Below, piece after piece: positions 4,081 through 58,903 of a stretch of DNA of 64,000 nucleotides. Every line of letters begins with the position of its first letter. The stretch's first letter is position 1. Both the position numbers and the translations under genes were made by a program. The stretch comes from Lama guanicoe (lineage: Eukaryota). Location: assembly GCA_013239625.1 (NCBI GenBank), contig MU057342.1, positions 11,072,556 to 11,136,555 of the forward strand, read 5' to 3'. The notes under the pieces were generated by a model. That model saw nothing but the letters and a program-made list of their open reading frames with translations, searched no databases and was not told the DNA's origin.

Positions 4081-4121
4081 AGAATTCCCCTTTCAACACT
4101 CAGAATTCCCCTTTCAACACT
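4081..4121. repeat. Perfect 20-bp direct repeat, period 21
   Basis: agaattcccctttcaacact at 4081-4100 and 4102-4121. Confidence 0.95.
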
Positions 4122-14700: not shown

Positions 14701-15532
14701 ATAAAATAAGATTTATGTCTACCATTTTGTTATTTATTTTTTATGTCAGGTCTCTTTGTTCTTCTATTCTTCCATTTCTGACTTCTTTTATGTTTGACAG
14801 ATATTTTATAGTGTACCATTTTACCATTGTTGTTTCCTTTAATATATTTTTTGTTTCCATAATCTCTGGGATTAAATTTAATTTATTGTACAATCTAATT
14901 CAGATTAACACTAATTTAATTTCCATAGTATAAAATTTTTATCTACTATATCACTTTTTAATTCCCCCTTTCTTTGTGTTCTCATTGTCATAGAAATTAC
15001 TTCTTTATACACTATAAGCCCATTAATGTGGTTTTATAGTTTATGTAGTTGTCTTTCAAACCAGGAGAAAAAGACAGTTATAAACAAAAATAAATATATA
15101 CTACCTTTTATATTTACTTACATAGTTACCTTTATCAGTATTGTTTATTGCTTCATGTGGATTTGAATTGTTGTCTAGTATTTCATTTCAGCCTAAAGGA
15201 ATTTTTTTTTTTTTGGTAGTATTTCTTATAGGGCAGATCTGCTAGTAACAAGTTTACTCAGTTTTTGTTTATCTTGGAATATCTTAATTTCTCCTTCCTT
15301 TTTGAAGTACAGTTTTGCTGAACATAAAATTTTTGGCTAATTTGCCCTTAAGCACTTTGAATATGTAATTCACTGCCTTCTGGACTCCATGATTTCTGAA
15401 GTGAAATCAGTTATCAGTCTTGTTGAGGATTCCTTGATTTGAGTAGTAACTTATCTTTCACTGCTTTCAAGATTCTCTCTGCTTTTTGCTTCATCAATTT
15501 GATCATGAGGTATGGTTCTCTTCAAGTACGTA

Positions 15533-15853
15533 CTATTGGTTTTGTTGAGCTTCTAGGATGTGTAGATTAATGTTAACTACCAAATTTGAGGACTTTTGAG
15601 CCATTAGTTCTTGAAATATTGTTTCTGCTCCTCTCTTTCTCTCTAGTCTTTTTGGGATTTCCATTATGCACATGTTGTTACACTTTATGGGGTTCCAAAG
15701 ATCTCTGAGGCTCTGACCACTTTTCCTCATTCTTTTACTTCTCTGTTCAACAGGATGAATAATCTCAATGGACATGTCTTCAAGTTCACAATTTTTTCCT
15801 CCTGCCAGCTCAAATCTTCTGTTAAACTTACCCAGTAAAATTTTCATTTCCAT
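15533..15853 (-). pseudogene. Decayed LINE-1 ORF1p fragment
   Basis: Translation ...ELEDMSIEII...KSGQSLRDLWNPIKCNNMCIMEIP...GAETIFQELMAQKSSNL...NLHILEAQQ matches ORF1p coiled-coil/RRM motifs (SLxELWDxIKRxNIRIxGIPE, IFEEIMAENFPNL). Confidence 0.9.
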
Positions 15854-16225
15854 TATTATACTTTTTAACTTCAGAATTTCTATGTTTTATAATGTCCAAC
15901 TCTTAAATGAAATTGTCTATGTGGTGATACAGTTGTCATACTTTTCTTTATTTCTTTAAACATGGTTTCCTTTATTTTTTTAAATATACATATAATAATC
16001 TGATTTAATTTATTTTTCTAGTGAGTCCAATGTTTGGGCTACCTCAGAGGCAGTTTTTATTGACTTTTTTTCTGTGTATGGGCCATACTTTTCTGTTTTC
16101 TTTGCATATCTTGTAGTTTTTCTGTTGAAAACAAGACATGTTAAATAACACAACGTGATAACTCTGGAATCAGATTTCTCTCTCCCCTCCCTGGTGTTCG
16201 TTGCTTTGTTTCTTTGTTGTTTTGT

Positions 16226-16246
16226 TGCTGCTGCTGCTGCTGCTGC
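16226..16246. repeat. (TGC)7 trinucleotide repeat inside L1
   Basis: tgctgctgctgctgctgctgc. Confidence 0.9.
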
Positions 16247-18959
16247 TTCTACTGCTGTTTTCTTAGCAACTTTTCTGAATTCTCTAAGGTTTGTGTTTTG
16301 TCATGTGTGGTCACTGAAGTCATTACTCAGATTTGTGATCAGCTAATAACTAGACAAAGATATCTTTAAATGACTTGAACCAATATGTTTCCCAGCCTTT
16401 GCCAAGGGGCACAAATGCTTTGCGCATTTGTCGGTCATGGATTTCCCCTTCTGACAGGCAGTTTACAACTCTGCCTTAGCCTTCACTTCCAGCTTGTACA
16501 AATGCTCAAGGTCGGACAGGAGTGAGAGATTAAGTCCTTATCAGGCCTTTCCTGGGCATGTGTACATCTCTATGCATGCTCCCTAAAGTAGAACTTGACA
16601 AAAAGTCCATTTTTATATAAAGCAAGACACTGAAGTATCCTCAATATGAATTCTTATTAAATGACACAGAACTGAATTTATTGTGGATCTGTCCTTTTTC
16701 CAGTAGCTAATATTTCTCTGGCTGGCTCTGAATGAATCATGGTCCCATGTTCATCAAAACAAATTTCTCTCTGCATATTTTATAGATGATTTAAAAAACA
16801 CAGAACCCAGTCCAAGTATTAAAAGTCAGAATGTTACAAAGTTTGCATATTTCAACAAAACCTTGAAGATGACATTGTCCAGAAAACGCCAAAGTGCTTC
16901 TTTCTTCGAATTAAAATTCTAAATTGTTGTATGAAAAGCTCCCAACATCAGCATTTCCTCCTACAGCCTGCCTCGCAACCAGAAGTTCTATGGTTTTCAC
17001 ACATGCTCCACACATACAGCTTATTTAGAAGAGGGCTTATATTGCTGCAGACTTCACAGGCTTGTTCAGGAACCTTCCTTTGAAATGATAAATTGGCTCT
17101 TTCTAGAGCTGCTTTCTTATTCAGAGACCTTCTTATGAGTGCTCTCCATGAGGATGAGAAAGAGCACAGCGGTACATCTAACACACTCAATTCTTTCGCT
17201 AAAAGTCATCAGAGACTCTGTACTATGATATTTCTGGGATCGATCAGTCATTTTTCCTTTTTGACCCTAGATATAGTTAGGTAAGAGGGGGTTAGCCAAA
17301 TAAGAAAACTATTATGCCTGGAACTCGACGTATCAAAATCAATTCACACATTTTAAAAGTTCCACCTGACTAAATTCCTACAAGATGAGAATCTGCCTTT
17401 AGGATGAGTCATTTGATTTCATGTTATGCTGGTGAAAATCAATGTGTGAATACAATAGGTGTTTCTAAACTTTATTAAACATGGCAAAAGGTTTAATTTT
17501 CTGAAATAAGTAAGTTGACTCTTATCAAATGATACACAATTGCGGTAAGAGATTATTACAATACTACTCTATTTTTAACTCTTTGGAAAGAAAAAAATTT
17601 CGTAAGTGGGAAAATCTAATGAAATGTAAATTGCAAATTTATACACAAAAGAGCCAAGAAAGGCAAAAGTTAAGGTGCTCAGGTTAACAACCATTCAGTT
17701 ATGTTAAACTTAATACATGCTTAATTAGGCTATTAAATGTGTATTTTAATGCGCCACAGGTGAAATGCAGAGGAGTTAGAGTTCCTATGAGAACTTAACT
17801 TCCACACTTCCTTACTCCCCCGTGTTTAAAATGCAACGTTTTGGGTTAATATAGCCGTTTGAAGTTAACTGCTTTGTTTTATTTTTATTTTAAAAAGAAA
17901 AGAATAAAGCAACCCACAGTATTTAATATTATTCATGTTTAAATGGTCCTTGTTGGTTTTTAAAATATGTTTGTAAAAGGAATACATTAGAGTCTGTGTT
18001 TATATCTTTGCTGGGGCCAACCTGCCTGACTAGAGATCACTTTCGGTTTTTTGCTAGATTATATTAATAAGCAGCAAATCACGATGTTACAATGAATCAA
18101 AAGAAATAATAATTTAGTTGTATTATTTTATTTTTAGAATAAGTAGCCACAATGCACACGTGAAATCCTTAATGTCTCCACTCATTTACTTCAGCAAGAA
18201 CAGAAAACTAAGAGAGTATACCTTTGACTTCACTAACTCCACTCCATAAAACTTCTAAACATCAGCAGAAAAAGACAACAAAATTTCCTTTCTTGGTGTT
18301 TAAGAAAAGATTATGCCCTAGGAAACCCATCTTAACAACAAGCTTGTTTTCTTTAGAAGCCACCAACCTTTTCGCTGGTGCTCTCTACTGTATCTTAAAT
18401 GCAGAAGGTAAAACTTATTTTATAGTGGGAATGAAGATGAAAAGCCTTCCCATTAGTCCCATGGAGTTACAGCCTCATGGTTTCCGGACTTGTGCAATTA
18501 CCCTGTGATATTCTGGCCCAGTGGACTGGACTGTGATGCATACACTGTGATCCTTTACAATGTATTCCTAAATGAATAGGAGAGAATGGTAGTGCTGACT
18601 TCAGAGAAGCAGAGTCGGGTTCCCATTAGAATATGTTTTGTTGGGTCAGAAATAGCTATAAAGTTGTCCTATATGCCCACTTATGTTTCATAGCCATAAA
18701 GTACCCATCTTAAGACTGGTTCTGTTGATTTAACAAACTGACTCTTACTTTCTCTGTACACAGCTATTGACCTAGCTCTGGATGGCTTCCCAAGCATGAG
18801 TCAAGCCAAAGCCAATTTCTAGGTAGAGAAGACTATAATGTCCAAAATCAGCCCTTTTTGTATATTTATGCTCTTTGACAATAAATGGACTGGTCATTCA
18901 TTACCTCCTAGTTACCCACTTACTCCTACTCCTGTGCAGTAAGTGAAGTTTAAAAGTAA

Positions 18960-20110: not shown

Positions 20111-20401
20111 TTACTTCATTCCGTCAACTTGTTTACAACTTAGAAACTCCTGCTAGCTTGCTTCTTAGAAACAGCAATCATATCTTGTTCATCTTTACAA
20201 CCCCAAAGTACTTAAACATAATAATACTTAGCACATATTAGGCCATAACTAAAACCTTTCCCCTGGCTTGGATGCTGGCAAAAACATCACATCTACCCTT
20301 AACCAGTAAAATAAAATATTTTTATTTCACGTACTTTGTCAGAGAAACAATCTCCAAATCCACTGCTATGTAAGGTCAGCTAAAGAGATATATTTCTAAA
20401 T

Positions 20402-20695
20402 TTTTTATTTCTTTATTTTTGACAAATAAAAATCACATATATATTTAAGGTGTACAACATAATGGTTTGATATACATATATATTTTAAAATAACTGCTAC
20501 AGTCAAATTAATTAACATATCTGTCACTTCCCATAGTTGCCACTTTGTGTGTGTGTGTGGTGAGAACACTTGAGATTTACACATTTGGCAAATTTCAAGT
20601 AGACACTGTCTTATTACTAACTCTAGTCACCATTCTGTAAATTAGATCTTCAAAACTTATTCATCTTACAATTGAAAGTTTGAATCCCTTGATCT
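20402..20695 (-). mobile_element. L1 3' end (L1MA8-10-like)
   Basis: gacaaataaaaat...atatttaaggtgtacaacataatggtttgatatacatata...gtggtgagaacacttgagat...gcaaatttcaagta...tagtcaccattctgtaaattagatct. Confidence 0.9.
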
Positions 20696-20744: not shown

Positions 20745-20870
20745 TGTGTTCCTCAATAATCCCCTCAAGATTCTGATTCAGAGGGTCTAAGATGGGGTCT
20801 GAGAGTCTGCATATCTAACAAGCCCCCAGGTGATGCTGAAGCTGCTGGTCAGCAAACCACACACTTACTG
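20745..20870 (-). mobile_element. MER5A (hAT-Charlie), partial
   Basis: gattctgattcagagggtct...ctgcatatctaacaagcccccaggtgatgctgaagctgctggtc. Confidence 0.85.
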
Positions 20871-20949
20871 CCCTAGCTCAAAATCACTCTTAGAGTTTGT
20901 GCCTGGTGTTCACTTTTTGGCTTCTATAGAAGTGTTTTCCTGGATGCTA

Positions 20950-21440: not shown

Positions 21441-23824
21441 GAAAGGAAAAAAAGGACCTATTATAAGCAGAAAACACTTGCACAATAGTTCTTAAACATT
21501 CCACTATTATCTACTATAAGAACTACAAGCAGCTAACTAAAATTTGTATTAACTGACTTAAAATTACTTTTAAGAAAGTCAGGGTTCCAGGAATCATCAC
21601 TGTCATTCTTGTTTACTGATAGCAATGGATTATCTTAGAGTGATAAGATAGAAACACTGGCTGGAAAGGTAGGAATGTCTTGTCATTGGCTGCCTGATTT
21701 AGTGAAGCTCCCTGATGATATACCACCAATTTCATCACTCAGTCTGGAGGTGAAGGGTCCTTGCAATTCTACCACCTGTCTTCTCTGAAATCTAATCACA
21801 ACTCTGAACTCCTAAGGGATTCTATTTTTGCTATCCCCCAAATGCTATGCTGTGTTGTTACTATAACATCATATTCTTATATTTGTCCCTCACTTCACCT
21901 AGCACCCTACTTTCCATGCAGTCAGAATCAATATTACTTTCTGTTTATTAAGTAACAGCATTGCTATTTTTATACAGGAACTCTACAATAGGAGACATTG
22001 TATAATAATCTTGGACATTCAACATTGTAATAAGAAATAAAAATCTAAAAATCTGGGGCAAAAAAGAAAAAAAAAGCTCTTCAAGTTATTGAGAAGAAAA
22101 GACCTTGATCTGCTATGATGGCAAAGTTTCTGAAGAGCCAAGTATAATTATTAAGTCACCTAAAAACTAAGACTTTTTAAATAATAGTTTCAAAGATCTC
22201 TTAATTATTTCACCTGGTTGTAGAAATGCATCAATGTTTCATCAAAGCTGTCCATAAAGGTGACTGTTTTTTAAGGCTAGCGAGGGTATGGCCACAATCT
22301 CTTTCCAAGCTGAATTATTTCCCAAAATTCTTCTCTGTATCTAATTCTCCAGCCACATCAACCCTTTTACTCACTGCAAATGGCTCCTCTATCATCCCCT
22401 TGTCTTGTTCACTGAAGTGAGCTGTTCTGAAGTACTGTTTATGCATGTTACACAGCTAAATCCTATCCCACCTCCAAGAACCCATGAAAATGTTCCTCCC
22501 TCATGATGCTGTCTTTCCCTGTTCTCCAACCTGAAAGGAATCTCACTCTGCCACATTTATACCACTTATAATCTAACTCCTGACTCCTTACAAAATACTG
22601 CCTTTGACTACATTTTTCTTCGGTATATGATATCTGCAAACTGGTTAGCTCTCTGAAGAAAGTTATGGCTACTTTTTGCTAATACCCTGAAGACACTTAG
22701 CTTAATCCCTACAACTTAGTCTTCAAATGCCTGTTGAATGAATCCATTGACAAAATCCTGGTAGGCATGCATCAGCAGGTCATCACAGCAAAGAGAAGGT
22801 TGCCTGTGTTTATTTGTTCAACTTATGAAACAAGGCTCTTTTAATCACATCTACCATTTCTCTGTGTGTATGTGTGCATAAGCATATATTCATAATTTTG
22901 CAAAACACATGTTCAATATATAAATTGCTTAGTCTGTGTATTTCCAGCTTTGATTATTCATGGTGCAGTCCTTCATAGAGGCTGATAAGAGCTACTCATA
23001 AAATGCAACTCTACATAATAGTACTCGCCTTGGTACTACTGCACTTAATAAAGCACTTCAAAATTCATACTGAAGTACAGAATGCGCTAAACTACAGGAT
23101 TCAAATTATCTTAGATGTGTGATTAAATATGCTATAAAATTATTCTTCAGAACACTTATTTTATTTGTTAAAGAGCATATGTTCTTCCTCAAAATAACTT
23201 GCTATTTTTGAACTATTACTCAGCCACATACTTCCTACAAGCAGCAAAGGTTACCTCAGATAAACCTAGGTTTTACAATATTTGAAAGACTTTCCTCTGC
23301 TACTCTATGCCAAATGAAAATTCATGAGTCATGGGTGAATGACAGGAGCAGTCTTGGAGGTAATTTTTTCTTAATGCTAGTAGCTTGAAATAAAGTTTGT
23401 TTAGTAATAATATTTTATAAGCCCCCTCATACACTTGATTATGTTTGCTTCAAAGCAAGGATGAAAATAAATATCAGTATAATCTACATTTTTCAGAGGA
23501 TGCAATCAAGTCTTAGAGCAATTACATGAATGGCTCAAGGATGCATGTGTAGTGAATGGCCATATCCATATATCTAACTGTTAACACTATCACCTTTAGT
23601 TTAAGATTTGAGGCAGGGAATTTGTCCCTTTCATTTCCATTTGAACTGACATTTGATAACCATTTTTTTAAAATATAACTGCTTCCAAATTGGCCGGTTA
23701 ATTTGATATATCTTTCTTCTTCTGCTTTTGGTCATTCCTTTTCATTTAATCCACTGACTTTATGTTAAGGTGGAAACTTCCAAATGATCAGAAAATTTTA
23801 AATCAGCGCACCATGTTTAAACAC

Positions 23825-24232
23825 TGTGGCAGAGACAGTGCTTTATGTTTCCGAACCCTGTTTCCTTTTCCTCTAGGACATAGGACTAGATTACATTTCC
23901 CAGGCTCCCTTAAGTTCAGTGGAAACATGTGCTTAAATTATGGCCATGGAAAGGTGGTTAGAAGTGATGGCCTGGTCAGAAGTAGCACTTCCAGGCCTGG
24001 GCTACAATAATTCCTTCAATGCAGGCCTCCACATTCGCTTCTCTTATTTACAGGCCAGATGCAGAGGATCCACTGGGGACTCCAAGGCCTTCACTGACAT
24101 GAAAGCCACTCAATGAAAGAAGCCAGGATTCCTAAATGACTAAGGAGAACAACGGCTCCTAACACCTGCCCCATTACCACTAACTTGAATTGGATGATGA
24201 CATGGTGAAAAACAATCCTTTATAATATTAAA
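23825..24232 (+). mobile_element. MLT1J-family MaLR solo LTR
   Basis: tgtggcagagac...ctagattacatttcccaggctccctt...agaagtgatg...cacttccaggcctgg...gatgcagaggatcca...gaaagaagccaggattcctaaatgac. Confidence 0.88.
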
Positions 24233-24671: not shown

Positions 24672-24830
24672 AGGAGGGAGGGTCTAGCTCAGTGGTACAG
24701 CACTTGCTTAGTATGCATGGGATCCTGGGTTCAATCCCCAGTACCTCCATTAAAATAAATTAATTAAAAAAAAAACCCTAATTGTCTTCCCCTCAAAATT
24801 AATAAAAGTTTTTTTTTAATGGAAAAAAAA
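24672..24830 (+). mobile_element. Camelid tRNA-Ala-derived SINE (Vic-1 type) with 15-bp TSD
   Basis: Head gggagggtctagctcagtggtacagcacttgcttagtatgcatgggatcctgggttcaatccccagtacctcca (A and B boxes), A-rich tail, and TSD aagaccagcttactg at 24657-24671 and 24831-24845. Confidence 0.93.
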
Positions 24831-24875: not shown

Positions 24876-25008
24876 TTTTGTTGTTGGTGGGGGGGGTGGA
24901 GTAATTAGGTTATCTATTTATTTACTCAACAGAGATACTAAGGATTGAACCCAGGACCTTGTGCATGCTAGGCATGCACTCTACCCAGAGTTATACCCTT
25001 CCCCAACC
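24876..25008 (-). mobile_element. Camelid tRNA-Ala-derived SINE (Vic-1 type) with 16-bp TSD
   Basis: Reverse complement reads ggggaagggtataactctgggtagagtgcatgcctagcatgcacaaggtcctgggttcaatccttagtatctc. TSD ttgtagatattttctt at 24860-24875 and 25009-25024. Confidence 0.93.
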
Positions 25009-27015: not shown

Positions 27016-28229
27016 ACGCTCCCTCCCATAGCCTGGTGAGAAGACATTTGCAGAACCATTTCTCTCAGACTTCTCTCAAATGTCATAGTTTGACCTCTTT
27101 CATCTCATGTAGTGAATTAAAGAAACTGACCTTCATTTGGAATTATTCAGGTTACATAACAACTATCAAACGAAAGAGCAGAGTAGCATGCCTCAATCCA
27201 GTGAAATCCTCAGTTTTCAAGCATCCATAAAATTATCTGTTAGCATTTATTAACATTCATTTGGCACTTAAGTGGGTAAAGGAACAAGTTAGGCATGAAA
27301 CAATGTACCAGAAAGTACTGTGAAAGGTGATGGCTCAGAAACTGCAAACAATCAACCAAGTTTGATGTTAAAACAGCAAGTCCAATGAATGCAAGGGTTC
27401 CCTCCTCTTTACTGTAGAGCTACTTTCCAGAAAACTCTAACAGTTTTTAATTTCATAAGAGCTTGAAACTAGTTAAAATAGCATGTTTATTTGTAATACT
27501 AGTATTGATGGTTTTCCAGTGTTCATCTGCTTTTCAGTTACCGGAACATGTAAGAAAAGTTAAATTCTTCTCACCTCAGCAAATTTAGAACCCTGTTGGT
27601 GATTTACAGAAATTAGAAACATCAAAAAAGCAAATTCAATTGGCAAACATGCAATTGCTTTCTTAATCTACCATATTTTAAAAATTTAATCAACCCAGAC
27701 AAAACTTCATTAGCTAAGTTATACATAAATGCATTTTCTGTATCTAAATAGATTAAGCTTTATAAGGCCTTAAAATAAGTATTGCATATAATTTCCTATT
27801 TTTCTAAGGGGCTAGGAGGAAAGACTATTCAGATTCTCTCTATGATTTCAAATTTTCCAAATATTCTTATTTTTTGTGGAAATAGTTATAAAATAATCTA
27901 TAAGAAGTACACAGACAAAATTTTTACTGGATAGTTTTTAAAGGTATTTTATTTTGTAAAACACTAGGCTTATCATTAGTGATTCAGAAAGAGAATCGTC
28001 CCTCAGATCTGTTCCTTATCCCTCACTATCTTGCTCATAAACTCATCTGTCTTCTTAAAAGATAAGGGTTGCCCTGAGAATTTCTGGGGAAGAAAATAAA
28101 ACAACACTTTGCAAAGAAAAGAATCACTCACATGAATTAACTATATAATTATGTTATAAAATAGGAGATGATAAAATTTCTAGTAAAAGTGAGGAGCTGA
28201 AGAAGGATGTACTGTCCCCATTTCTTTCA

Positions 28230-29945
28230 GGCCTTTTCCAAGAAAATCTTCCAAATATTTGTCTCTACTCACTATTTCAGTTCCTCTTTTCCCATTTTTC
28301 TTCAAACCCATTCCATTCTGACTTACAAGCTAATCACTCCACTGAAAGTGCCCCATAAACTGCTAGATCCAATAGTTAGTCAATTCAACAGCACTTCAAT
28401 CAGTTGACCGCTCTTTCCTCCTTGGTTCGCTTTCTTTACTTGGCTTCCAAAACACTACATGCCCATGATTTTCCTCCTACTTTGGTTGCTCCTTTTCGGT
28501 TTCCTTCTGTAGCTCTCATCATTTAAGGAGGATATGCCCCAGTGCTCAGCACTTGGCCTCTTCTCATTATCTGTTCACATTCAATTCCTTGGTGACTTCC
28601 TCCACTCTCATGGTTTTAAATAACCATGTCTAGTGACTAATGGTATTTAATGACTCCCCGAGTCATTATCTCATTTTTATCTCCACTCCAGGCCACTTCC
28701 CAGAACTCCAAACACACATACCTAACCATCTACTTGGCATTTTCATTTGGATAAACATCTCAGATTCACTCTGCCCAAACTGTTTTCCTAATATTCTCCT
28801 CCCTGCCCCACAGAACCTGTTCCAGCTGCAACTTCCCCATCTCAGTTGATGGCAACTTCATCCTTCTAATCACTAAGGTCAGAATCATGGAGCAATCCTT
28901 GATGTCGCTTTTCTATCATATCCCAAATCCAGTTCATCAGCAAATCCTCTTGGCCCCAGCTTCAGAATATTTCTAGAATTCAACCCCTTATAAGCAATTC
29001 CACTACTGCCAACCTTGTCTGAGCCAGTATCTTCTCTTACCTCTTAGACAATCGTCTTCCTTCCACCCTTGTCTCTCTGTCTCTCTCTCACACACACACT
29101 CCCCTAAATTTACTCTCCCGTAGAGCTTTTTAATCCCTCAGTTTAAAACTCTGCAGTGGTTCTCTATTTCACTCAGAGTAAAATCCATTGTCCTTAAAAG
29201 GGCTTAAAAGGAATTCAGCTCTCCATTACTTCCCTGACTCCCCCTACTAACCTGCCTTTCACTTACGATGCTCCAGCCCACAGAAACTTCTTGGTCTTCC
29301 TCAATATGTCAAGCACATCTATAGAAACAGAAAGCAGATCAGTGGTTGCCAGAGGCTGGGGAAGGGGAGAACGGAGGAGGTGACTGCTTAATGAGTATAG
29401 AGTCTCCTTTTGGGGAAACGAAAACATTCTAGAACCAGACAGTAGTGACAGTTGCACACTGTAAATGGACTAAGCGCCACTGAATTATACACTTAAAATG
29501 GTTAAAATGGTGAATTTTATGTTACGTGTTTTTTGCCACAATTTTTAAAAATACCACACTTACAGCCTTTGCAGTAGTTGTTTTTCCTCTGCCCAGAGAA
29601 TGTTCTCACTCCAAATCCTCACTCGACTAACTCCCTTCCACTGATAAGTGTTTGTTCAACACCACGTTCTCTATGAGGCCAACTCCGACCACTGTATTAT
29701 GGAAAACTGCTCCTTACTCTGTATCTCCCTCACCCTTTTCAACCTTTTTATTTTTTTCCACAACACTTATTTTCTAACATACTTGATAACTTAGTTTTGA
29801 ATTTATATATTGTTTATTGTCTCCTTTGCTCAAATGAAAGTTCCATGAGGGCAGGGGTCCTTGTCTATCGTGTTCAGTGCTGGATTTCAAGGGACCAGAC
29901 AGTGCCTGGTGCACATAAGCACTTTCGAAATATCTGTGAATAAAT
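28230..29945 (+). mobile_element. L2a LINE, long 3' portion, interrupted by an L1
   Basis: cactccactgaaa...gttgaccgctctttcctcctt...cttggcttccaaaacac...ttccccatctcagttgatggcaacttcatccttcta...aaaactctgcagtggttctctatttcactcagagtaaaa...aagttccatgagggcagggg...acagtgcctggtgcacataagcact. Confidence 0.92.
29316..29551 (+). mobile_element. L1MB-type L1 3' end nested in L2a
   Basis: tagaaacagaaagcagatcagtggttgccagaggctgggg...gtgactgcttaatgagtatagagtctccttttgggg...ccactgaattatacacttaaaatggttaaaatggtgaattttatgtta. Confidence 0.92.
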
Positions 29946-30165: not shown

Positions 30166-31189
30166 ATATAGCAAGGACTTTATGGGGAATTCAGTGTGTC
30201 AAAATAACCTCCTGGTAATTTAAGTTAGTCTGTTATTTCTCACATTTAGCTTCACCAAAGAGGAATAAAAAGCTTTTTTTTTAAATCTCTACATCCTCCA
30301 TAAAATAACCTTAAAAGCAGCCTCAGTATCCTTGAAATTGGCCTTTTTGAATGATTAGTCTGAAAAGAAGGTCCAGATGGGTGGGCGCCCCAGAGACAAA
30401 TCCTAACCGGGCCTCTGCACTGGAAGGCCAAAACTACTATGCTAGAGTTTTACATGAAAATGGAGGAGGTGATGAGGGCTCAGTGTTAGAAGTGTCCCCA
30501 CCCCTTGAGGAGGTCTAATAGTATCCAGATACTTATGAAAGATAGGGATTGCAATTCTACAGGGCATAAGATGCATGAATCCATTTGATAGTGCATCTTT
30601 GAGGTGACAATACCGCAAGAGGATGCATGCTGGCAGCCTGTGAGGGGGAAAGAATTTGTCTTAAACACTAAAGCTTTGGGAGCTGAAGCAAAATTTCCCC
30701 AGCTGTTCCAGAGAGAAACCAGCTGCCTGTAGAGAAATCCAAATTGAACTGACACCACAGGCTTAAGTGACGAGCCCAGAGGAAGTGACCGGCATGGTCT
30801 GAGGATTGAACCCCATCTCTCCTCCATTTTCTTGAACCAAATAAGCCAGGATATGCTTATATACATGTAGGAAGAAGGAGGAATCCCCAAAACTGAATGA
30901 GATCTGTTTTCTGGTCAATCTTGGTTACAAAAGAAAAACTGAAGACTGAGCTCTTTCGACATCTTATTAAGCAGTACTGATCTGTAAGCTCATAGAAACC
31001 AAGGACAATATGCCATCTGTCTGTAACTGCTGTTGTAAATAATGCAGCCCCTTCCACAGAGTAACATGTCAAGCAATGAATGAATAATGACTTAAAATGA
31101 GATGAATGGAAATCTGCATTTTGTAGTAGTCTAATACTTTTCCAGAAAACTACCACTTCATTTCAGCTGCAAATACATATGGTAGTGAG

Positions 31190-34918: not shown

Positions 34919-37163
34919 ATATTTTTTCTCAGAGAAATTCTAACAGCTGTTCAGAGAATAGAACAGTCTTCATATTCTTATAGTAAAAATAGAAATTTGA
35001 ATAACTGGTGGATTACAAATTACAAATAACTACAATCTCTTAGTAAGTTCCAATACAAGGAAGGCCCTTTTTCCGTAGGGGAAAGTGCAGTATAGAATAG
35101 AAAATCATCACACAATGCAAGTCCAGCACAACAAAAGATAATACTCAAATCAGAACTGAAATCTTAAGAGTCTAACCTAGCCACTTTTGGTTAAGTTTTT
35201 CATCACTGCTCAAGTAGGAAGAATCCCGAGGAATAAGATAGAAGTTTCAATTGTGTAGTATTAGCAGGTATAAGTCTAGGAAATAGCTAGACATTATTAA
35301 AAATAATTTACTCCGAAGTGCTTGCATTTGGATTCCAAATAATATTTTCTATTACCTTTATAAATTTCCAAGTTAAAAGATGTCTTCTGACATTGCAAAG
35401 GAGATGAGACTGACCACGTGGACATAAGGAACATTGAAATTTGCTGCCTTGGAAAAAGTCCAAATTATCCAGAGAAAATATGCAGGACATCTCATAGAAA
35501 AGGGAAGCTGAATAAGGATTACATCCTTTTAAATATGTCGCCTCTTACATTTCATGCAATATGACTTTAAATGTTATTTGTCTTTATTTACCTTGGAACT
35601 TTTACGTGTATTATGATAAAAGTAGATTAATATTCCGGGAACTATTAACTGTTCCCAAAAGGCACTCCTATTCTCCTGTGGCAACTTAATATATTTGAAG
35701 CTGAGCCCATTTCTGATTAAACTATAGGAAGACTCTGCCAGGTCTCTGCTAAAATTTATCACTCTATTTCTCTTTCCTATCATCTGAAACGTTTTTGAAG
35801 AAAATCAAAGGTACATCTAAAATAGAACTTTATTTTTAACTTCTTTTACCACTTGAAAAGAACAGGGTTGTCAATGACGCTGATCTATGGCTGAAGGAAA
35901 GAAACCAAAGTGGTCAGGAAGGCAGCTCAAAGTTTTCACAAAGTCCTTGGTCAGCTTTTATGTACATCAAAATGATACCTATGGCCCCTGGTGACTGAAA
36001 GCCTTCATCCGCTCACAGCCTCTCTCCAACCTCCCCTTCATGCTGTGTGGTTGCAGGGCCCCTTCCTTTCCAAGACAGAATTCATATTCCTCCTTTGTGA
36101 GAGTAAGGTCTGTTCAAAGCAACCCACATAAAATGGGGTTCCTTCTATTTCTCATGGCAGTTTAAACTATTTTAAAAGGATGTGTCCTTCTGTTTGCACA
36201 TGATCCTAATTTTTCTCCAGTATGCTGAGGATATTCTGTCGCCTTTTATTTTGGGTATTGTCTTTCAGGGAGAAAAAAAAGTGCCAAATTTGATATTTGG
36301 AAGTATGGTGGTAAACTAGGCAATTTCCAACCGTGAGTGAAAAAACAGTGAAAAATCTTTTACACTTAAATACCCATTATTGGGAGAAGGATTGTACCCA
36401 GGGTTAAAAATTACAGGGAAAACAACTTGTAAGCATTACCATTACAAAGCTGAATGCCTAAGGCAATGTTCCTGACCACCACAAAAGCTGGTGATTTGCC
36501 TCTGGAGTCTGTTCCACACCTCCCTAATAGGCCTAGAAGTTACAGACAATTAATTATTAGATTATGTAACTCCCACTGCTTAAAGTTAGCAGAACATTCT
36601 ATGGTTTTACTGCAACTGTGCTGCTTTTCAGCGAGGGGTGCAATTTCATCAGCTCACTCATCTGCATCTTTGTGCTACTTAATCCTGGCTTCCCAGGGTT
36701 TTTCTTTAATTGGCTCAGCCTTCTTCTGCCTTCAATCAGCCTGATTTTATTCATGGGTTCCTAGTGAAGATGACTGAATCTGAAAATTATGGTGCCAAAG
36801 TTTATAGCAGTGCTAGATACATGCATTCATCTAAAACTTCTAGATTTAGAGGGTCTTTCTTGGACTAATGAAGGCACATCTCTGTAAGCTTCTGAAATCT
36901 ACAGTGGCTTCCACTTCCTACACTAGAGTTATGTAGTAATGAGAGGTAGTATGCATGTGTAACACTGTGGAAAGCACATTGGCCAAGGAATACAAGGCCT
37001 GCCTTGGCTGCAGTTTATTTTACCATATGTCTTTGCAGACAGTGCCAGTGTTCTGAGCCTCAGACTACTCATCTATAAATTGGAGGTTAAACCACCAAGG
37101 GGTTTTGGCCAGAGATGAATAAAATAATAAAGGGTAAAATGTTTTGCAAATTATGAATGCTAT

Positions 37164-37310
37164 TTAGATAAACAACAAGGACCTACTGTATAGCACAGAA
37201 ACTAGATTCAATAATTGTAATAATCTATAATGGAAACATTTTATTATATATATTATATATATATAACTGAATCACTTTACTGTACACTCAACTATACTGC
37301 AATTTAAAAA
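37164..37310 (+). mobile_element. Short 3' end of a cetartiodactyl-type L1
   Basis: agataaacaacaaggacctactgtatagcacag...ttgtaataatctataatggaaa...atataactgaatcactttactgtacac...tcaactatact. Confidence 0.9.
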
Positions 37311-37500
37311 GAAAGAAGGGGAAATTTGAACATAAGATACACATAGAAGGAAGACAATGTGTGAAGATGCAGGGAAAAGACAGCCATCTACAAGCCAGGG
37401 AGAGAGGCCTCAGAAGAAACCAACCCTGCTGACACTTTGCCTTTGAACTTCAAGCCTCCAGAACTATAAGGCAATAAATGTCTGTTGTTTAAGCCCCCCC
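37311..37500 (+). mobile_element. MLT1B MaLR LTR internal piece, ending just after its AATAAA
   Basis: gaaatttgaaca...gacagccatctacaagccagggagagaggcctcagaagaaaccaaccctgctgacactttg...cctccagaact...aataaatgtctgttgtttaagcc. Confidence 0.92.
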
Positions 37501-37879
37501 AAAATTATGAATACTATAGAAATTAAGGGATTAAACTATTATGAGCATCTGCAAACCCTAATTTCCTTATCATTGTGGCAATAAATAGCTCATGAGAACT
37601 TGATGATTTTTTTATTAAAAAGTTAATTAAGAAGACCTTCATTAGCATGTGCAATTAAGTTCACTGTTCTAATTGGTTCACTGAAATTTCTACTACTCAA
37701 ATAACATGGAAGGAACCACAATAAAATCCTGAATAAATAAATGTTAATTACATAGCATTAAAATATATTGAGGAATGACCAAAAGATTTAAGGCCACTGA
37801 TATAACTCAACTCAGCTGTCCGCTCTTTCTTGACACTATGATCCTGCCAAGGCATCACCCATCACCTATGATAAGAGGA

Positions 37880-39329: not shown

Positions 39330-39521
39330 GGCTCTTCTCAAATTTCAGCAAGCATCAGAATCACCAGAAGGGCTTGTTGACTGTGATTACAGATCTCTGA
39401 CAACAGTGGCAGTTTCAGATTCATAGTTCTGAGGTGGGAGGCCCAAGAATTTGCATTTCTAACAAGTCTCCAGGTGATGCTGATGCTTTTGGTCTTGGGG
39501 ACCACACTTTGAGAGCTACTG
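39330..39521 (-). mobile_element. MER5A (hAT-Charlie), near full length
   Basis: ttctcaaatttcagcaagcatcagaatcaccagaagggcttgtt...ggcccaagaatttgcatttctaacaagtctccaggtgatgctgatgct...ggaccacactttgagagctactg. Confidence 0.93.
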
Positions 39522-39824
39522 GCACACATTTAGAGCTCTTTGAAGTGACTTTAGTGCCTTAGTTTTCTTCTGCTCTCTGAATTGTCTTCCTTGAGCTTTT
39601 GACCTCTCCATGTAGCTAGAAAACAATTGTGAGTGAGGATGGAATGAATGCTTTACATGTCTTATTTGGGGATGGGTCAAATAGTAACACAAGGAACACA
39701 TGGGGCTGTAAAAGTACTGCAACTACTCAGTACTATCTCAGAACTATCTCTTTGCTGCAACCATAGTTATCACTCTCTCAGCATTGACACAGCTCCCCTT
39801 GGATGTGTCCTGTAGCTTCACAGA

Positions 39825-40050
39825 GTGAATGAAAATGACTTGAGCAGTAGTCCAGAAACTTCTAAGTCAAGCTTTGCCTCTTAATAGTCATGTAACCTTT
39901 AATAAGTTCTTTATATTCACTAGCTCTCAGTTTTCTCTTCTATAAAATAAAGCTAATATTATCATACCTGCCATGGCAATCTCACAGAATATTTGGAGGA
40001 TTCAAAGGTAATGTTTGAGTACATGCTTTGAAAATAATTAATGGTTATAT
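39825..40050 (+). mobile_element. MIR SINE
   Basis: gctttgcctcttaatagtcatgtaacctttaataagtt...tctcagttttctcttctataaaata...ctcacagaatatttggaggattcaaa. Confidence 0.8.
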
Positions 40051-40124
40051 TTAAAGTAAAATCTCTGTTATCATGCACATAACTTCCCATCAGCCTATAC
40101 AGTTAACTTTACAAAAACTGGATA

Positions 40125-40283
40125 CAGTCGTTCCTCAGTATCTGTGGGAGACTGATTGGTTCCAGGACCCTCCTCCCCATACCAAAATCTGTGGATGCTC
40201 AAGTTCCTTACATAAAATGTTTTAGTCGGCCCTCCATTTCTGCAGGTTGCGCATCTATGCATTTAACCAATCAGGGATCAAAA
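40125..40283 (+). mobile_element. MER2-like TcMar-Tigger element, partial
   Basis: TA|cagtcgttcctcagtatctgtggg...ttggttccaggaccc...ataccaaaatctgtggatgctcaagttccttacataaaatg. Confidence 0.88.
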
Positions 40284-40587: not shown

Positions 40588-40770
40588 CAGTGATATTCAA
40601 CCTGAAGTAGGATAAGAATCACCTGGGGCCCTTGTTTAAAATGCAAATTTCAGAGTCCTACCCCTAAGAATATGAATAAGAGTCTGAGAATGGATCCTGA
40701 ATGGGCATTTTTTACAAGCTCTGGGAGTATCCAAACAGGAGGTCCTAAAATGACATGTGGAGCGATAGGT
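40588..40770. mobile_element. MER5-family hAT-Charlie MITE
   Basis: cagtgatattcaacc...agaatcacctggggcccttgtttaaaatgcaaattt...gcattttttacaagctc. Confidence 0.75.
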
Positions 40771-48777: not shown

Positions 48778-51744
48778 TTCACTATTTCCACTATTCCAGC
48801 AATACTACCATCATCAGTTAAGTTGTAGCTACTCTTAATGTATTACTTCCAAACCCCATCCAACATTTTCTATCTAATAAATTTTAGACCTTTGACATAA
48901 ATCTGATACACATTTAAAATTCCTTTTGCTAGCACTCTATTTAAATAAACCCTAGATTGGAAACTGATGAGCTAGCACATTAAGAATTCACTAATTTGCA
49001 AATCGTTTTCATCCATTAGTTCATTGCAGAAAAATCACACATTCAGAAAATAGTTCAAACAGCAATTTCACCAACATTTCAGCCTTAAACTTCCACATAT
49101 ATTCTAAATTTGCCTTATCCAGGAATATACAATAAAATGTAGAAACGTTGAGATAAAGTATAGTTCACGATAGCAAAAAGAGGCAAGTTAGCATTTTGGA
49201 AAGTAAAATAATGGGTTAATGAATTATATTATGAATAAAGTTAGGAGAGATAAATTAATATTCTATGTTAAAAGCTTCTGGAACTCTCTCATCTTTAATT
49301 TAAAATTTTTTATTGAGCACAAGTACAACTGTTAATATTCTAAATATGTTTGCTAATAAATTTTACAAAATTACTATTTTATGTTTAAATATATTACTTT
49401 GAAAAGACTGGTACATTCTTGAAATATGACTTCTTATTTAAAATCCAGGGACAAGTTTTCCCTTTGATAAAACAAATCTATAATTTTATGATGAAATCTA
49501 AGAGGCAAATATAAATCGTATAATAAAAATATCTGTCAGAGAACTTTTTCTTGTAAAGTATCTGATATTTTAAGTGAAGAATGCCTGCATAAACTAATTT
49601 GTGGCAACTTCATTTTTATTCATTCAATTATATTTAAAAGTCTATGTATATGCATGAATACATAATTAAACATTCTTGTAAGATTTGTCTCTATACTTGA
49701 AGAAAACATATATATACTCTCAAGATTTGAGAATTATGATGCTACTGCATAAAACATAGTGAAGGATTATATGTCAATATCTTCCTTTTGTATTTATGAC
49801 AAAAGGAAAAATAGTCCACAAAGAATTGTAAATTGTAAATCTAACTCGTACAGGACAGGAACAAATGTGGAATAAGCAGAAGTCTTTTGGGATGTGTTTT
49901 TAAGCAGGAGGTTTTGAAAACTCCAAATTTAGCTTCATAAAAAGAGGTAGTGCAAGTGTGAACCATGTGGTCATTCTGGCATACTCTGTGTAAAACTTCT
50001 CTCTTTACCTAAATAAGGATATAATAAAGCTGCAGAAATGTGCAAAGCAGAAATCCTCCAGTTCTGTTTATTCACTTTCAGTCAGGTAGTAAAATATCCT
50101 AATGTTCCATGAAGAAATCTTCAAAATGCAATACTAAAATAGCCTGCTAAAGAGAAATCAACAACTTCTTTATTTAGATACTGAGCAGTTTAAAGAAAAA
50201 GATGGGTGGAGGTTTTGAGTTTTAGGGGTTTTTTTTAAGCCAACTCTATCTGTAAGGATCAGTTTTACTAAATTTTCATCATCCTTACTTTGTTGCATTT
50301 TTTTTCATACAGTCATGCCCCTTTCTTCCTCTTCTATGTCCCATATCCTCCAACTTCCTCTCAAACATTCTGTGGAAGTGGGACGGGGGAGCAGGGGGAG
50401 CAGTCTCAATGTCTTTCATCTTTTTCCATTTCATTTCTTCTTCATTATCCTTTCTCCTTTTTCTGGCTCCCTCTGGCCTTCTTTCACTGCTGTAATTACT
50501 TTTCAGCCCATAATTCTTTTAGAAATTCAATTTCTAAGACACTCTCCATTCACTTCTAATTCTACAGTCTTTGGTAACGCTTTGTAAAAAAAAATGTAAA
50601 CTAAGCCCTTCTTTCTCTTGGTTTTCTGAGACACAGCAGCAGTGGAAGGAATAACAAAGAGTATCTTCATGTGATGAGTGCGATGTTACTGCGACCCTCA
50701 GGCTCAAGGGAATACTGAACTCTTCCTATAACATACATGTATGACAAAAACATCCACTACTTGCGAAAAAAAATCAAATCTGTTCACACAGAACTATTTG
50801 TGCTGACAATTTAAATGTGAAATTCTGACTATTTTAATGGACCTATGTGACTTTAAGTTTGATTTTGAAGAATTTTGGTCCCTAAAGACCACTGCGCTTT
50901 CAAATATAATTTTAAATGGATGTCCAGAATCTAAATCAACAAATTACTATAAGCATATGAACAAATCATACAATCTATAAGAAAACCAGATTTTTAGGTA
51001 CTAATAGCTCATTAAGTAGTGTCTTTGGACATCAAGATACTGCAACCACTCCTCACTCTCTGACACTGAGTGCAAAAAGAGGACATGAACTAGTATAACA
51101 ATCACAAAATTAATGATAAGTAACATACCCTCACTGTCAAAATGGCACACAGTTATAAATCTGAACGATAAAAAGCACAATAACTATATAACCCAGGAGT
51201 ATACTTAAAATAAAATGTCCAAAATCTAAATGAAGACAACTGAACAACTTTACTAAAAATGTTAATTAAAAGGCATACTATTTTCCTGAATAGAATGATC
51301 AATGTTGTAAAGATACTAAATGTTCTATTACGATTATTGCAATTACAAACTATTTTAAAGAGAGAATTTGCACACTGAACTTAACATATTGATTCTGGAA
51401 AAAAGTGTGTAAGAAGAGTTAAGAGGAGTTGTAAAGAGAAAAATGATGATAGAAACTTTCCCTTAGATATGCAAATTACTCTAAACTAGAGTAATTTAAA
51501 CAGTATGATACTAGCAAAGAAATAATGTGATTATTACAGTATAAAAGTCTACAAATACCTGTGTATATATAAATTTAGTATAAGATGAAAATGAAATTAA
51601 ACCAATCCTTACCTCACAGTGTTAAAAAAGATAAATTCCATACGAATTATTATGTTTTAAAATGTATAAAGAAAATGAAAAGTAGAAACAACAGAGGAAA
51701 TTTTATTGTTTGTTTATTTTAGTAATCTTGGGGTTAAGGAGGTA

Positions 51745-52053: not shown

Positions 52054-52202
52054 CAGTCGGCCCTCTGCATTCACAGGTGCAGAATTTGCAAACACAGGCT
52101 CACTATAATGGGCCAATTTACATAATGGACTTGAGCATCCGCAGATTTTGGTATCTGCAGGAGTCCTGGAATGAATGCCCCATGGATACCCAGGCAGAAC
52201 TG
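52054..52202 (-). mobile_element. MER2-like TcMar-Tigger MITE with TA TSD
   Basis: TA|cagtcggccctctg...ggacttgagcatccgcagattttggtatctgcaggagtcctggaa...ccccatggatacc...aactg|TA. Confidence 0.88.
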
Positions 52203-53887
52203 TATAACATCTATCAAAGAATATTAAAAGTTCTTCAAATTAGTATGAAAAATAAATACTTTAAGAAAAATGTTTCAGATGTCATAAACAAGCTATTCCC
52301 AAGAGAAATATAAAAGCCCACAACATGACATTTTTCAACCTCACTAATAATGAAAGAAACACATTTTGTGTATGTGTGTGTGATTAGCAAAAATTGCTTA
52401 CTCACACTATTGTAAAAGATTAAGTCGAAAAAACTTTCTCATGCAATTTTGATGAGAGAATAAATTGGTAAAACCTTTTAGACAGCAGTTTATGAAGGCA
52501 TATGGAAATTCAAGTATGCACTGCCTTTTCCTTAACAATTCTTTTGATATGAATTTAGCCTAAAGAAACAAAGTGTGCGAAAACATACAAAATAGGTATT
52601 TCTTCACACTGCTATTAAAATATCAAAACAAACATATCAATAACCTAAGAGGTAAACCTCTAATTATTGAAGCAGAAAATACATCAGTTGATCAATATTC
52701 AGTAAGAAAAAGCAAGTTAAAGAATAGTGTATGTAGTATATGTAATCTATCCTCTTTAAAACATAAGTAGGTAGCAATATAGGTTTACAATCGTAAAGAA
52801 AAACTTCTGAAAGAATATATATTAAACTGTAATTAGTGGTCATCTCGATGGGATAAGATTATAGGAAGCTTTCACTTTTTAATTTACACCATTCAGTATT
52901 GTTCGAATACTTCCTAACATTTAAGAATTGCTTTTATAATAATAAAAAGGGACATCTCCATTTTGGAAAAAACAAAAGATTAAGAAACTCATATAATAAT
53001 TACTTTCCAAGTTTCAGATTTTCACATAATTCTAAGAGCTACCTGCCCTTTTAAAAAGCCTTTTACTTAGGTTCAATGAGGTCCTTGTCAAGAATTAATA
53101 TATACTTAAGTGCTAACTTCTTTTTTAAAAGAACTGCAATTAAAAGAGCCACTTATAAAGGAATTCACAAGCATGTTTCCCAGCTCAGAGTTTAACACGC
53201 AAGTAACATCTCTATTAGTACTTGAAACCAAGAATTATAACCCATAGCAGGCAGAGCATTTAAAGAAAGCTTAATAACAAGAATGGGCCCAATTTAATTC
53301 AACTTTCAAAATGTTTTTTATACTTCAGAAACTAAGAAGTTTTCTACAGCCTATAAAACTTGCACATTTCATCACTAGGTTTAGGAGAAAAAGTCATTTC
53401 TTACCATTAATGGTTAATTAATCCATTTATTTCAGACACTATAGTTATGTGAAAGACTCACGATTATTACAGTAGAAACAAAACTTGATAGTCTTTTTCA
53501 TCAGCAAAGAGTATCAGAATATTAAGATCAAATATTTTGCATTGTCCATGGTTTTTAACATTTTCACTAAAGCAAGCTTTTACTATATTTAAATATGGAA
53601 GGCCACCACCAAATTTAGTGAAGAATTTCACTTCCTCAGGAAGCAGAGGAACAGCTCTATGACCAGATATTATACCCCTCTGTAAGAATTAAGTTGGATT
53701 CCTCCAAGGGAGACTAACTTCCTTATCTCTATGGCATAAAAAGTTAACGATACCTTTCTTGGTTTAGGGTTCATCCCTCCTACCAAACGTTGTATATCCC
53801 CATAATCTCTTAGGAAGCATCATGTTACAAAGCAGAATATTCCACACCAACACTCACCAGATGTCTAATTTTGAGAAGGGTTAGCGT

Positions 53888-55964: not shown

Positions 55965-56548
55965 CTACCTTATTAGTAATACAAAAATAAAAATAAAAAT
56001 AAAAATTACAATTAGGCTTTTATTATTTTTCAAATATAGTACTTAGTATTGACAAGTATACAAGAAGTCAAGTAATCTTTATTATGGCAACGGGAGCATA
56101 AATTTGCTACAAATTTCCAGAGATTATTTGGCAGTATGTGTATAAAGTCTTAAAACATTTATGTGCCTTGACCAAGCAGTAACATTTTTAAGTATTTATT
56201 TTAGGTAAAGAGTAGAAGATGTTCTCAAGGATTAATGAGCAAAGACATTTAATAAACAATTCATAATAGTCAAATACTCAAAACAACCTAACTAATATAA
56301 AATAGCATTAGTAGATTGGTAAAAATAAATTATGAAATGCCCACACAATGGATGCTCAGCATTCATGTAAAAGTCCTACGTTAGAATAATATTTCATAAC
56401 ATAAAAATGTTTACTACCTGCTGTTTTGTGAGAAAAGATTATATGCTCTAATTTTTTTTTTTTAATGTTCAAGGTCATATCTGCATTGGGAGGCAGAAGA
56501 AAATCCTCGAAGAGCTACTGTGTGGATGGTGGATTTAGGGTAATTTTT
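55965..56548 (+). mobile_element. Old L1ME-like 3' region
   Basis: gggagcataaatttgctacaaatttccagagattatttggcagtatgt...tgccttgaccaagcagtaacattt...aataaattatga...cccacacaatgga. Confidence 0.7.
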
Positions 56549-56549
56549 T

Positions 56550-57340
56550 AAATTATTATATAAGTTTTAAGTCACTGTAGTTTAACATCTATATACACAG
56601 CAGAGTGATCACCACCATAAGTCTAGTCACCATGTATCACCATATATTTGAACCCTTAAGTACTTTTGCTCACTCCCAACTCTTTTTCCCTCTGGTAACC
56701 ACTAATTTGTTCTCAGTTTCTATATGTTTGCTTTTTATTATATTGTGCTTGTTCATTTTTTGTTTCTTTTGCTTTCTTTCTTAGATTTCACATATGAGTG
56801 AAATCATACAGTATTTGTCTTTCTCCTTCTGACTTATTTCATTTAGTATAATACCCTCAAGGTCCATCCATGTTGTCACAAATGACAGTATTTCATTCAT
56901 TCTTTTTTATAACTGGATTGTATCTCTCTCTGTGAGTCTGTGTGTGTGTGTGTGTGTATCACATTTTTTTATCCCTATATCCATCAATGGACAGTTAGGC
57001 ATGAGGTTGTTTTCATATCTTAGCTATTGTAAATAATGCTGCAGTGAACATAGGGGTGAATGTATCTTGTCTGATTAGTGTTTTGTGTTCTTTGGATAAA
57101 CATCCAGAGGGGAATAGTTAGGTTATATGGCAGTTCTAGTCTTAATGTTTTGACAAATCTCCATACTATTTTCCATAGTGGCTGCATTAATTTATAGTCT
57201 CATCAATAGAGTACAAGAGTTCCTTCTTCCTCCATATTCTCTCCAGCATTTGCTATTCCTACCTTTCAATAACAAGCATTCTAACAGGTGTGAGGTGATA
57301 TCTTACCATTATTTTAATTCACATTTCTTATTATTTAGTT
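56550..57340 (-). mobile_element. Laurasiatherian-type L1 3' end, with (TG)n at about 56939-56957
   Basis: gtgatcaccaccataagtctagtcaccat...cctctggtaaccacta...gatttcacatatgagtgaaatcatacagtatttgtctttctc...ataataccctcaaggtccatccatgttgtcacaaatg...gctattgtaaataatgctgcagtgaacatagggg...cattctaacaggtgtgaggtgatatct. Confidence 0.95.
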
Positions 57341-57714: not shown

Positions 57715-57960
57715 AATTAAAGAGCATGAGTCAGACAGACCATTAAAACAACGGTAGCTTCAAATTCTGACTCTTGACACTTTCTGTATGATGCTGAATA
57801 ATTATACTCCAGAGCTGTGCTTCTTTATCTCTAAAACAGGATAAAAATATGCACCCAGTAATGTTGTCATGTTGTTGTGAGGCCTAGACGCAGTAATGAT
57901 AAAGTGATTAGCAGAGTTCCTGGTACTAAAGGAAAACTAAATAAAACTGTAGCTATTATT
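57715..57960 (+). mobile_element. MIR SINE
   Basis: aagagcatgagtcagacagacc...ttcaaattctgactct...gttgttgtgagg...aaagtgattagcagagttcctggtac...agctattatt. Confidence 0.8.
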
Positions 57961-58903
57961 ACAGTGACGTTAATGTTCTAACATCACTAATTCTATACAT
58001 GAAATATCCTCTCCTCTTCAAACTGAGTAAAGAAGAAATAAGACTGTTAAACTCACAATGCTGGAAGGCTTGGCACCATGGAAAATTTATGACACAAGGG
58101 ATTTTTCAGAGGTACATAGTAATCTATTATTTGCTGCCTGGTAGATGTCTCAAGAAATAAAGTAGAGAATACTTCATCACATGCAATGGGAGACATGGGC
58201 TTCAAAGTGCTTTTCCAAGAAGTAGTGTCACCAGTGAAAACAGAACTGCTAGTTTCACAAGTCTTAAAAGCAGGCTGTATCTGAGCTTAGGTCTGAAGAG
58301 TGTGAATAGCCCCAAACACTGAACTTTGCTGTTTTATTGGAGCCAATTGAGAGCAAGGTGAAATTCAAAAGCTAGCATCAATGACTACGTATGCAGTCAT
58401 CTTCAGTAGATGAAAATCGGTCACTGTTACATCAGGCTAATAAATAAAATTCCTTCTCAAAGAACATGGTAATAAAGGAAAAATCCCCATAAATATCACA
58501 TTAATAATGGCCTGTAGACAAACAATAATTCAATAACTACTATCAGAGTTTATAGTAATTAGATCTGTGTAGAAGAAAGTTGAAAACTAGCCAAACCATC
58601 TTTTTACACGTAAAGCGAACATAATTATAAAACATGGAAAATCATGGCCCCTTATAAATACACTAGATTCTAAGAAGTAAAATGGATGGGGTAGATGATG
58701 AATCCTCATCACCACTGTCTAAATGCCAAAACTAAAAATTAACCACTGGTGTATAATAACTCTTAAATAGTACTATCTCCTGTGAACAGATATTTCTGTA
58801 ACCTATTAAAAGTGTTCTTTGTCTCACCCTAGAGGGAAAAATTATTAAAATAAATTAACATTTTACTGGGTCTCTAATTGGAAGTGGTTGTTCTCAACAA
58901 ATA

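Follow-up and report, generated by a model that had tools for sequence, protein, structure and literature searches.

A duplication-flanked insert joining an L1-type 3' end to an MLT1B-type LTR piece in Lama guanicoe, probably the product of a single L1 3' transduction

A 338-bp insert in the genome of Lama guanicoe carries on one strand, in this order, an L1-type 3' end, an A-rich remnant, 191 bp of extra sequence of LTR type, an AATAAA signal and the end of the insert, and a single 16-bp duplication surrounds all of it. We consider it probable that the insert is the product of one L1 3' transduction, in which the transcript would have been polyadenylated at the signal of the LTR itself and the copy truncated at its 5' end upon insertion. 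The DNA analyzed is a stretch of 64,000 nucleotides of contig MU057342.1 (hereafter the window), a gene-poor mammalian region with a G+C content of about 34%. It contains four stop-free frames of at least 120 aa, none of which lies near the insert. The features of the locus, in window coordinates, are the following.

36945 (start approximate) to 37163, plus strand: host element, an old SINE that we take to be of MIR type, whose 3' tail holds the target site
37148 to 37163, plus strand: left target-site duplication, 16 bp, in the context GC/AAAT (bottom-strand nick ATTT/GC)
37164 to 37501: insert, 338 bp, bounded by the two 16-bp repeats
37164 to 37310, plus strand: 5'-truncated end of an L1 3'-UTR, presumably cetartiodactyl in type; length about 147 bp, A+T content 77%, (TA)n tract near 37245-37265
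37300 to 37317, plus strand: imperfect L1 poly(A) signal and putative A-rich remnant of the donor tail, 10 A in 15 nt
37311 to 37501, plus strand (same strand as the L1 piece): internal piece of a MaLR LTR that we take to be of MLT1B type, 191 bp, presumably without the 5' part and U5
37473 to 37478, plus strand: AATAAA, the sole canonical poly(A) hexamer inside the insert
37494 to 37501, plus strand: end of the insert, a C-run and one A, the presumed cleavage site, without a poly(A) tail
37502 to 37517, plus strand: right target-site duplication, with a single G/A difference from the left copy

The insert at 37164-37501 is a real structure bounded by a duplicated repeat. The sequences at 37148-37163 and 37502-37517 are identical at 15 of 16 positions and the repeats do not extend leftward, which bears out the repeat coordinates, the 15/16 identity and the insert length of 338 bp that had been proposed in an earlier sequence-only reading of this DNA. 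Pairs of 16-mers with at most one mismatch and a spacing of 60-1000 bp occurred 8 times in the window, versus a mean of 1.4 in 20 shuffles, and two of the 8 were SINE duplications. Because 1.4 such pairs are expected in a shuffled window, the repeat pair of the insert is on its own suggestive only and could be due to chance. The probability of a 15/16 pair is 8e-8 at fixed boundaries and rises to 1.3e-4 if each end may shift by 20 nt, the boundaries themselves depending partly on presumed element ends. Two anchors mark them: on the left, a match to a pig primer begins 11 nt inward of the repeat; on the right, 23 nt separate AATAAA from the repeat.

Two tRNA-headed SINEs, which face each other about 45 bp apart at 24672-24830 (plus strand) and 24876-25008 (minus strand), show perfect duplications of 15 and 16 bp. 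We take them to be SINEs of camelid type, and they served as controls for the tail and nick comparisons. Between their heads, 55 of 74 aligned positions are identical, and the single Rfam tRNA match in the window (24678-24749) is the head of the first one. The duplication of the insert resembles those of the two SINEs in length. At 16 bp and enclosing both the L1 piece and the extra sequence, it also corresponds to the single duplication of an L1 3' transduction, since duplications of target-primed insertions range from 4 to 25 bp (PMC4862182). Compared with the L1 endonuclease site TT/AAAA, the target GC/AAAT is A-rich at its start and its two upstream bases misfit. The nick would be ATTT/GC instead of the canonical TTTT/AA, from which the control SINEs deviate less (TCTT/GA, and TA/AGAA on the element strand). 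One mismatch in 16 positions gives a 95% interval of 0.2-30% and is uninformative for dating the insert.

The sequence-only reading had described the host as a MIR interrupted by the insert, a description that is borne out in part for the left flank and not borne out for the right one. On the left, 36977-37161 aligned with 39845-40045 (z 4.7, 200 shuffles), and the alignment ran through the left repeat. The flank reached a z of at least 3 with 4 of the 9 candidate copies, and a profile built from nine other MIR-like copies matched it weakly (E 0.38). Judged from these alignments, the left repeat belongs to a putative MIR-like flank. To the right of 37517, resumption of the MIR was not significant (background fraction 0.12-0.59 over five lengths). 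Neither an Rfam family nor, at a score of 50, a tandem repeat was found at the insert locus.

The 5' part of the insert (37164-37310) presumably represents the 3' end of the L1 lineage of pig, cow, whale and camel. A full-text search of the literature with a 16-base motif from the insert led to the reverse primer of the pig microsatellite Swr1941 (PMC10618572), which, compared by eye, matches 37175-37198 at 24 of 25 bases (24 consecutive). This sequence therefore occurs in pig too; the L1 identity of the piece stays an assumption of ours. Comparison with an older L1-like end in the window gave a z of 1.5, which is not significant. The string caatttaaaaa, described in the sequence-only reading as a degraded L1 poly(A) signal, is present at 37300-37310, and the exact L1/LTR junction was placed within about 37306-37317. 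The A-rich stretch at the junction (10 A in 15 nt) counts as a tail under the relaxed definition used for dog L1s (PMC13141329) and corresponds to the remnant of the donor tail that lies between L1 and carried sequence in 3' transductions. In our analysis, the L1 signal itself need not have been degraded before read-through, because intact L1 poly(A) signals are read through as well (PMC4862182; PMC9311842). Splicing is an unlikely source of the junction, as only 8 pyrimidines are found in the preceding 20 nt. At 37245-37295, in the region that holds the (TA)n tract, the L1-type piece seems to be without some 20 bases of this L1 end directly before the terminal signal; if private, this deletion of about 20 bases would serve as a tag for the donor or for sibling copies.

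The 3' part (37311-37501) is presumably the distal half of an MLT1B element, ending where U5 would start. MaLR insertions are flanked by duplications of 5 bp. The piece, at 191 bp, covers about half of the 390-bp MLT1B consensus (RepeatMasker rows in PMC1914374), and instead of the full length and the short duplication of its own that characterize an ordinary MLT1B solo LTR, it has a 16-bp duplication in common with the L1 piece. No significant relationship was found with two LTR-like stretches of the window (z 0.7, -0.2 and 0.5), and the within-window comparisons gave no relative of the piece. Behind AATAAA, the last C (37500) is reached after 22 nt and the final base of the insert after 23 nt, in agreement with the signal position and the 22-nt spacing given in the sequence-only reading. 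Poly(A) signals of 3' transductions lie 10-40 nt before the end (PMC9311842), a range that includes the spacing seen here. A random window position has a chance of only 3.2% of falling 10-30 nt behind an AATAAA; the place where the insert ends therefore favours an RNA intermediate. MaLR LTR poly(A) sites are described as functional on the plus strand and as adopted by 292 human poly(A) sites (PMC2553571).

A terminal poly(A) tail, the near-absence of which the sequence-only reading had rightly pointed out, was not found at the 3' end of the insert, where one A is followed by the AAA that starts the right repeat. The best 15-nt window before the right repeat contains 6 A, versus 12 A for a control SINE. 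Of the dimorphic L1s in dogs, 27.2% are flanked by a duplication yet lack a 10-bp tail; under relaxed criteria, 12.4% are tailless, a figure that includes 4.9% not assessed (PMC13141329). Since tailless L1 insertions occur in dogs, the missing tail of the insert is tolerable, though real.

In 3' transductions as published, a duplication frames the 3' end of an L1, followed by an A remnant and by downstream sequence that closes after a poly(A) signal (PMC4862182; PMC9311842). The order of the elements in the insert is the same, which counts for transduction. Human transductions are 8-997 bp long with a mean of 206 bp (PMC9311842), and the 191-bp carried piece is close to this mean. In human, younger elements frequently break up MLT1B, with 3,435 interruptions listed among 14,061 units, and a chronology of 360 ranks places MIR3 at 12, MIRb at 13, MLT1B at 154 and L1MA9 at 156 (PMC1914374); a younger L1 within an MLT1B would thus be a common donor arrangement.

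We infer the following course of events. An active L1 elsewhere in the genome would have inserted, in sense, mid-way into an older MLT1B solo LTR. Polymerase II would have passed the weak L1 signal and a short A-tail into the remaining LTR, and the RNA would have been cleaved about 22 nt after the LTR AATAAA, whereby U5 was dropped. L1 proteins would then have nicked the A/T-rich tail of the MIR and used the 3' end of the RNA as the priming point for reverse transcription. This would have halted once 338 nt had been copied, with 147 bp of L1 and the 16-bp duplication as the result; these last two steps are visible in part in the locus itself. The tail may be missing either owing to priming on the first As past the cleavage site, the target repeat beginning with AAA, or through later loss. 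Such read-through from a nested donor followed by one insertion, already put forward in the sequence-only reading, fits the anatomy best. It gains support from two features to which that reading had put no figures, the A-rich remnant at the L1/LTR junction and the position of AATAAA relative to the end. The lack of a terminal tail, the ATTT/GC nick, the non-significant MIR continuation on the right and the non-significant within-window comparisons of the two pieces count against it. With no terminal tail and no source locus found in the window, the insert is classed as transduction-like and not as a confirmed transduction. Today it is a dead, promoterless and non-coding fossil, for which no function is proposed. 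A coding role was rejected, as the longest stop-free frames measure 53 aa and two protein searches with junction-spanning frames of this length gave no match and brought up no sibling.

The same hallmarks would be left by a retrocopy made in trans from a host mRNA or lncRNA that ended at an MLT1B poly(A) site, had an L1 fragment upstream and was 5'-truncated inside this fragment. Two of the TIGER calls turned out to be retrocopies of genes (PMC4862182), and host transcripts do use MaLR poly(A) sites (PMC2553571). However, this origin requires that a young L1 end in sense should lie, by coincidence, less than 200 bp from the poly(A) site, an arrangement that transduction supplies by necessity. 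Rough base rates would favour transduction about tenfold or more, and we regard a retrocopy as improbable. Slightly less probable again is a copy made at the DNA level, in which a nested L1/MLT1B fragment would have been copied into a staggered break during repair, without an RNA step. The absence of a poly(A) tail and the poor endonuclease site would suit such an event, but it leaves unexplained why the distance between AATAAA and the 3' end is that of poly(A) cleavage and why the duplication has a length typical of L1.

A purely local history is about as improbable. It supposes that an MLT1B was first present at this site, that an L1 inserted into it later and that deletions took both LTR ends, the 16-bp repeat being due to chance. 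L1-in-MLT1B nesting is common (PMC1914374), 1.4 repeat pairs are expected per shuffled window, the insert is tailless and the right-hand MIR continuation is not significant, all of which is compatible with this history. Against it, two deletions must end exactly at a 15/16 repeat (1.3e-4), one of them must fall 22-23 nt behind AATAAA (3.2%), and the left repeat appears to be part of the MIR-like flank. Least likely of all is a template switch from LTR RNA, on which reverse transcription would have started, to the 3' end of an L1 RNA, with a nested donor never having existed: template-switching chimeras are described in the literature and the junction is A-rich, but the LTR piece presumably starts at a TATA-like site of L1-endonuclease type, upstream of the LTR transcript start, which suits genomic nesting better.

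Each ingredient of a 3' transduction ending in an MLT1B has been published: the transduction process itself, the poly(A) sites of MaLR LTRs, retrocopies that L1 made of RNAs ending at an LTR poly(A) site, and composites of L1 with MLT1. The process behind the insert is most likely ordinary and well described, unless many identical copies exist elsewhere. With described L1 3' transductions (PMC4862182; PMC9311842; PMC13141329), the insert shares a duplication around what we take to be an L1 3' end, an A remnant and sequence that ends past a signal; it differs in having no terminal poly(A) and in that its carried sequence is wholly repeat-derived. The canine transduction pipeline requires 25 bp of unmasked sequence and discards cargo made only of repeats (PMC13141329).

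HERV-W processed pseudogenes (PMC5016936) are likewise copies made by the L1 machinery from an RNA ending at an LTR poly(A) site, in which U5 is missing at the R/U5 border of the LTR and the duplication is long instead of about 5 bp. These, however, are tailed copies of proviral RNAs, in the order R-U5, internal genes, U3-R, whereas the LTR of the insert is a passenger behind an L1 end. The colinearity with a proviral RNA (R-U5, internal region, U3-R) was not found in the insert, which contains neither an internal region nor a coding frame. L1MC3 and L1MD3 carrying MLT1F1 are L1-MLT1 composites that spread by L1 retrotransposition, in 114 and 93 copies (PMC1914374). In these elements the LTR was inserted into the L1, which supplies the 3' end, while in the insert, known as a single copy, the downstream LTR supplies it. 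SVA and LAVA elements (PMC5753468; PMC12593883) are also L1-mobilised composites, with an LTR fragment as the 3' part before the A-tail, but SVA is a multi-copy family with subfamilies and with hexamer, Alu-like and VNTR parts, none of which is present in the insert. Finally, tailless retropseudogenes (PMC5322556) are flanked by duplications, made by L1 and devoid of an oligo(A) tail. They arise by internal priming on A-rich RNA, whereas the insert ends at poly(A)-cleavage distance and is preceded there by a C-run; at its target, the AAA that starts the right repeat alone could have paired.

The MLT1F1 carried by L1MC3/L1MD3 and the LTR-derived 3' end of SVA are precedents for a possible L1-MLT1B family. 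We nevertheless find it improbable that the insert belongs to an L1 sublineage of camelids or cetartiodactyls that is so far undescribed, or to a non-autonomous derivative of one, with the MLT1B poly(A) site as its standing 3' end. On this same improbable reading, such composites would number dozens to hundreds, and the insert would be one 5'-truncated copy. Self-comparison of the 64-kb window by blastn, fuzzy 20-mers and nhmmer revealed 0 siblings or donors of the insert and thus gave no support to the composite family suggested in the sequence-only reading. Collections of plasmid, phage and prokaryote genomes gave 0 matches to it, a result with no bearing on a mammal element. No description of an L1-MLT1B composite in camelids was found in the full-text literature, a scope outside which most subscription papers and the Repbase and Dfam entries lie, and the terms 'MLT1' and 'chimer' are absent from the main text of a camelid repeat survey (PMC8605555).

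A small number of siblings would be ordinary, given that, of 58 human L1 sources, 27 produced at least two transductions and the most prolific one 91 (PMC9311842). Camelid genomes contain 350,000-397,000 L1 fragments and abundant MaLR sequence (PMC8605555), and L1 transduction rates are about 2-15% (PMC13141329). By a rough estimate from these figures, such inserts, each of independent origin, would be expected to number in the tens to hundreds per genome. If an L1-MLT1B family did exist, it could have gone unnoticed, as repeat annotation splits the composite into two known parts and pipelines drop repeat-only tails. It would be a case, outside primates, of an LTR end used in the manner of SVA, and would put to a natural test the idea that capture of a stronger poly(A) site helps an L1 lineage.

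As a single event, the transduction would mean that the poly(A) site of an MLT1B was still functional when the LTR family had long ceased moving. The insert would point to the L1 locus that had been active in the germ line, and its presence or absence could be scored in phylogenetic work on camelids or cetartiodactyls. A blind spot is also revealed, since repeat-only transductions are removed by at least one pipeline (PMC13141329). To specialists, a lone event of this kind would be unsurprising, and it would gain larger importance only if many copies have the same junction.

Other repeats were observed in the window. Older fragments that we take to be L1-like, with 3' ends of other types, lie at about 13900-16600, 20400-20690 and 56540-57340 (all on the minus strand) and at 7450-8400. 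A strong T skew was seen at 14001-16000. Older remnants at about 23820-24230 and 30340-30950 are presumably LTR-like, and neither aligns significantly with the LTR piece of the insert. Self-comparison also revealed small dispersed repeats, at 20768-20944, 39411-39594 and 40609-40686 and at 40122-40219 and 52114-52205, which are presumably old DNA-transposon fossils. Five further near-perfect 16-bp pairs, where about 1.4 are expected by chance, have no obvious tailed element between their copies; their positions are as follows.

27850-27865 and 28244-28259
50920-50935 and 51215-51230
57921-57936 and 58467-58482
13291 and 14090
13909 and 14872

A perfect 21-bp tandem duplication is present at 4081-4121.
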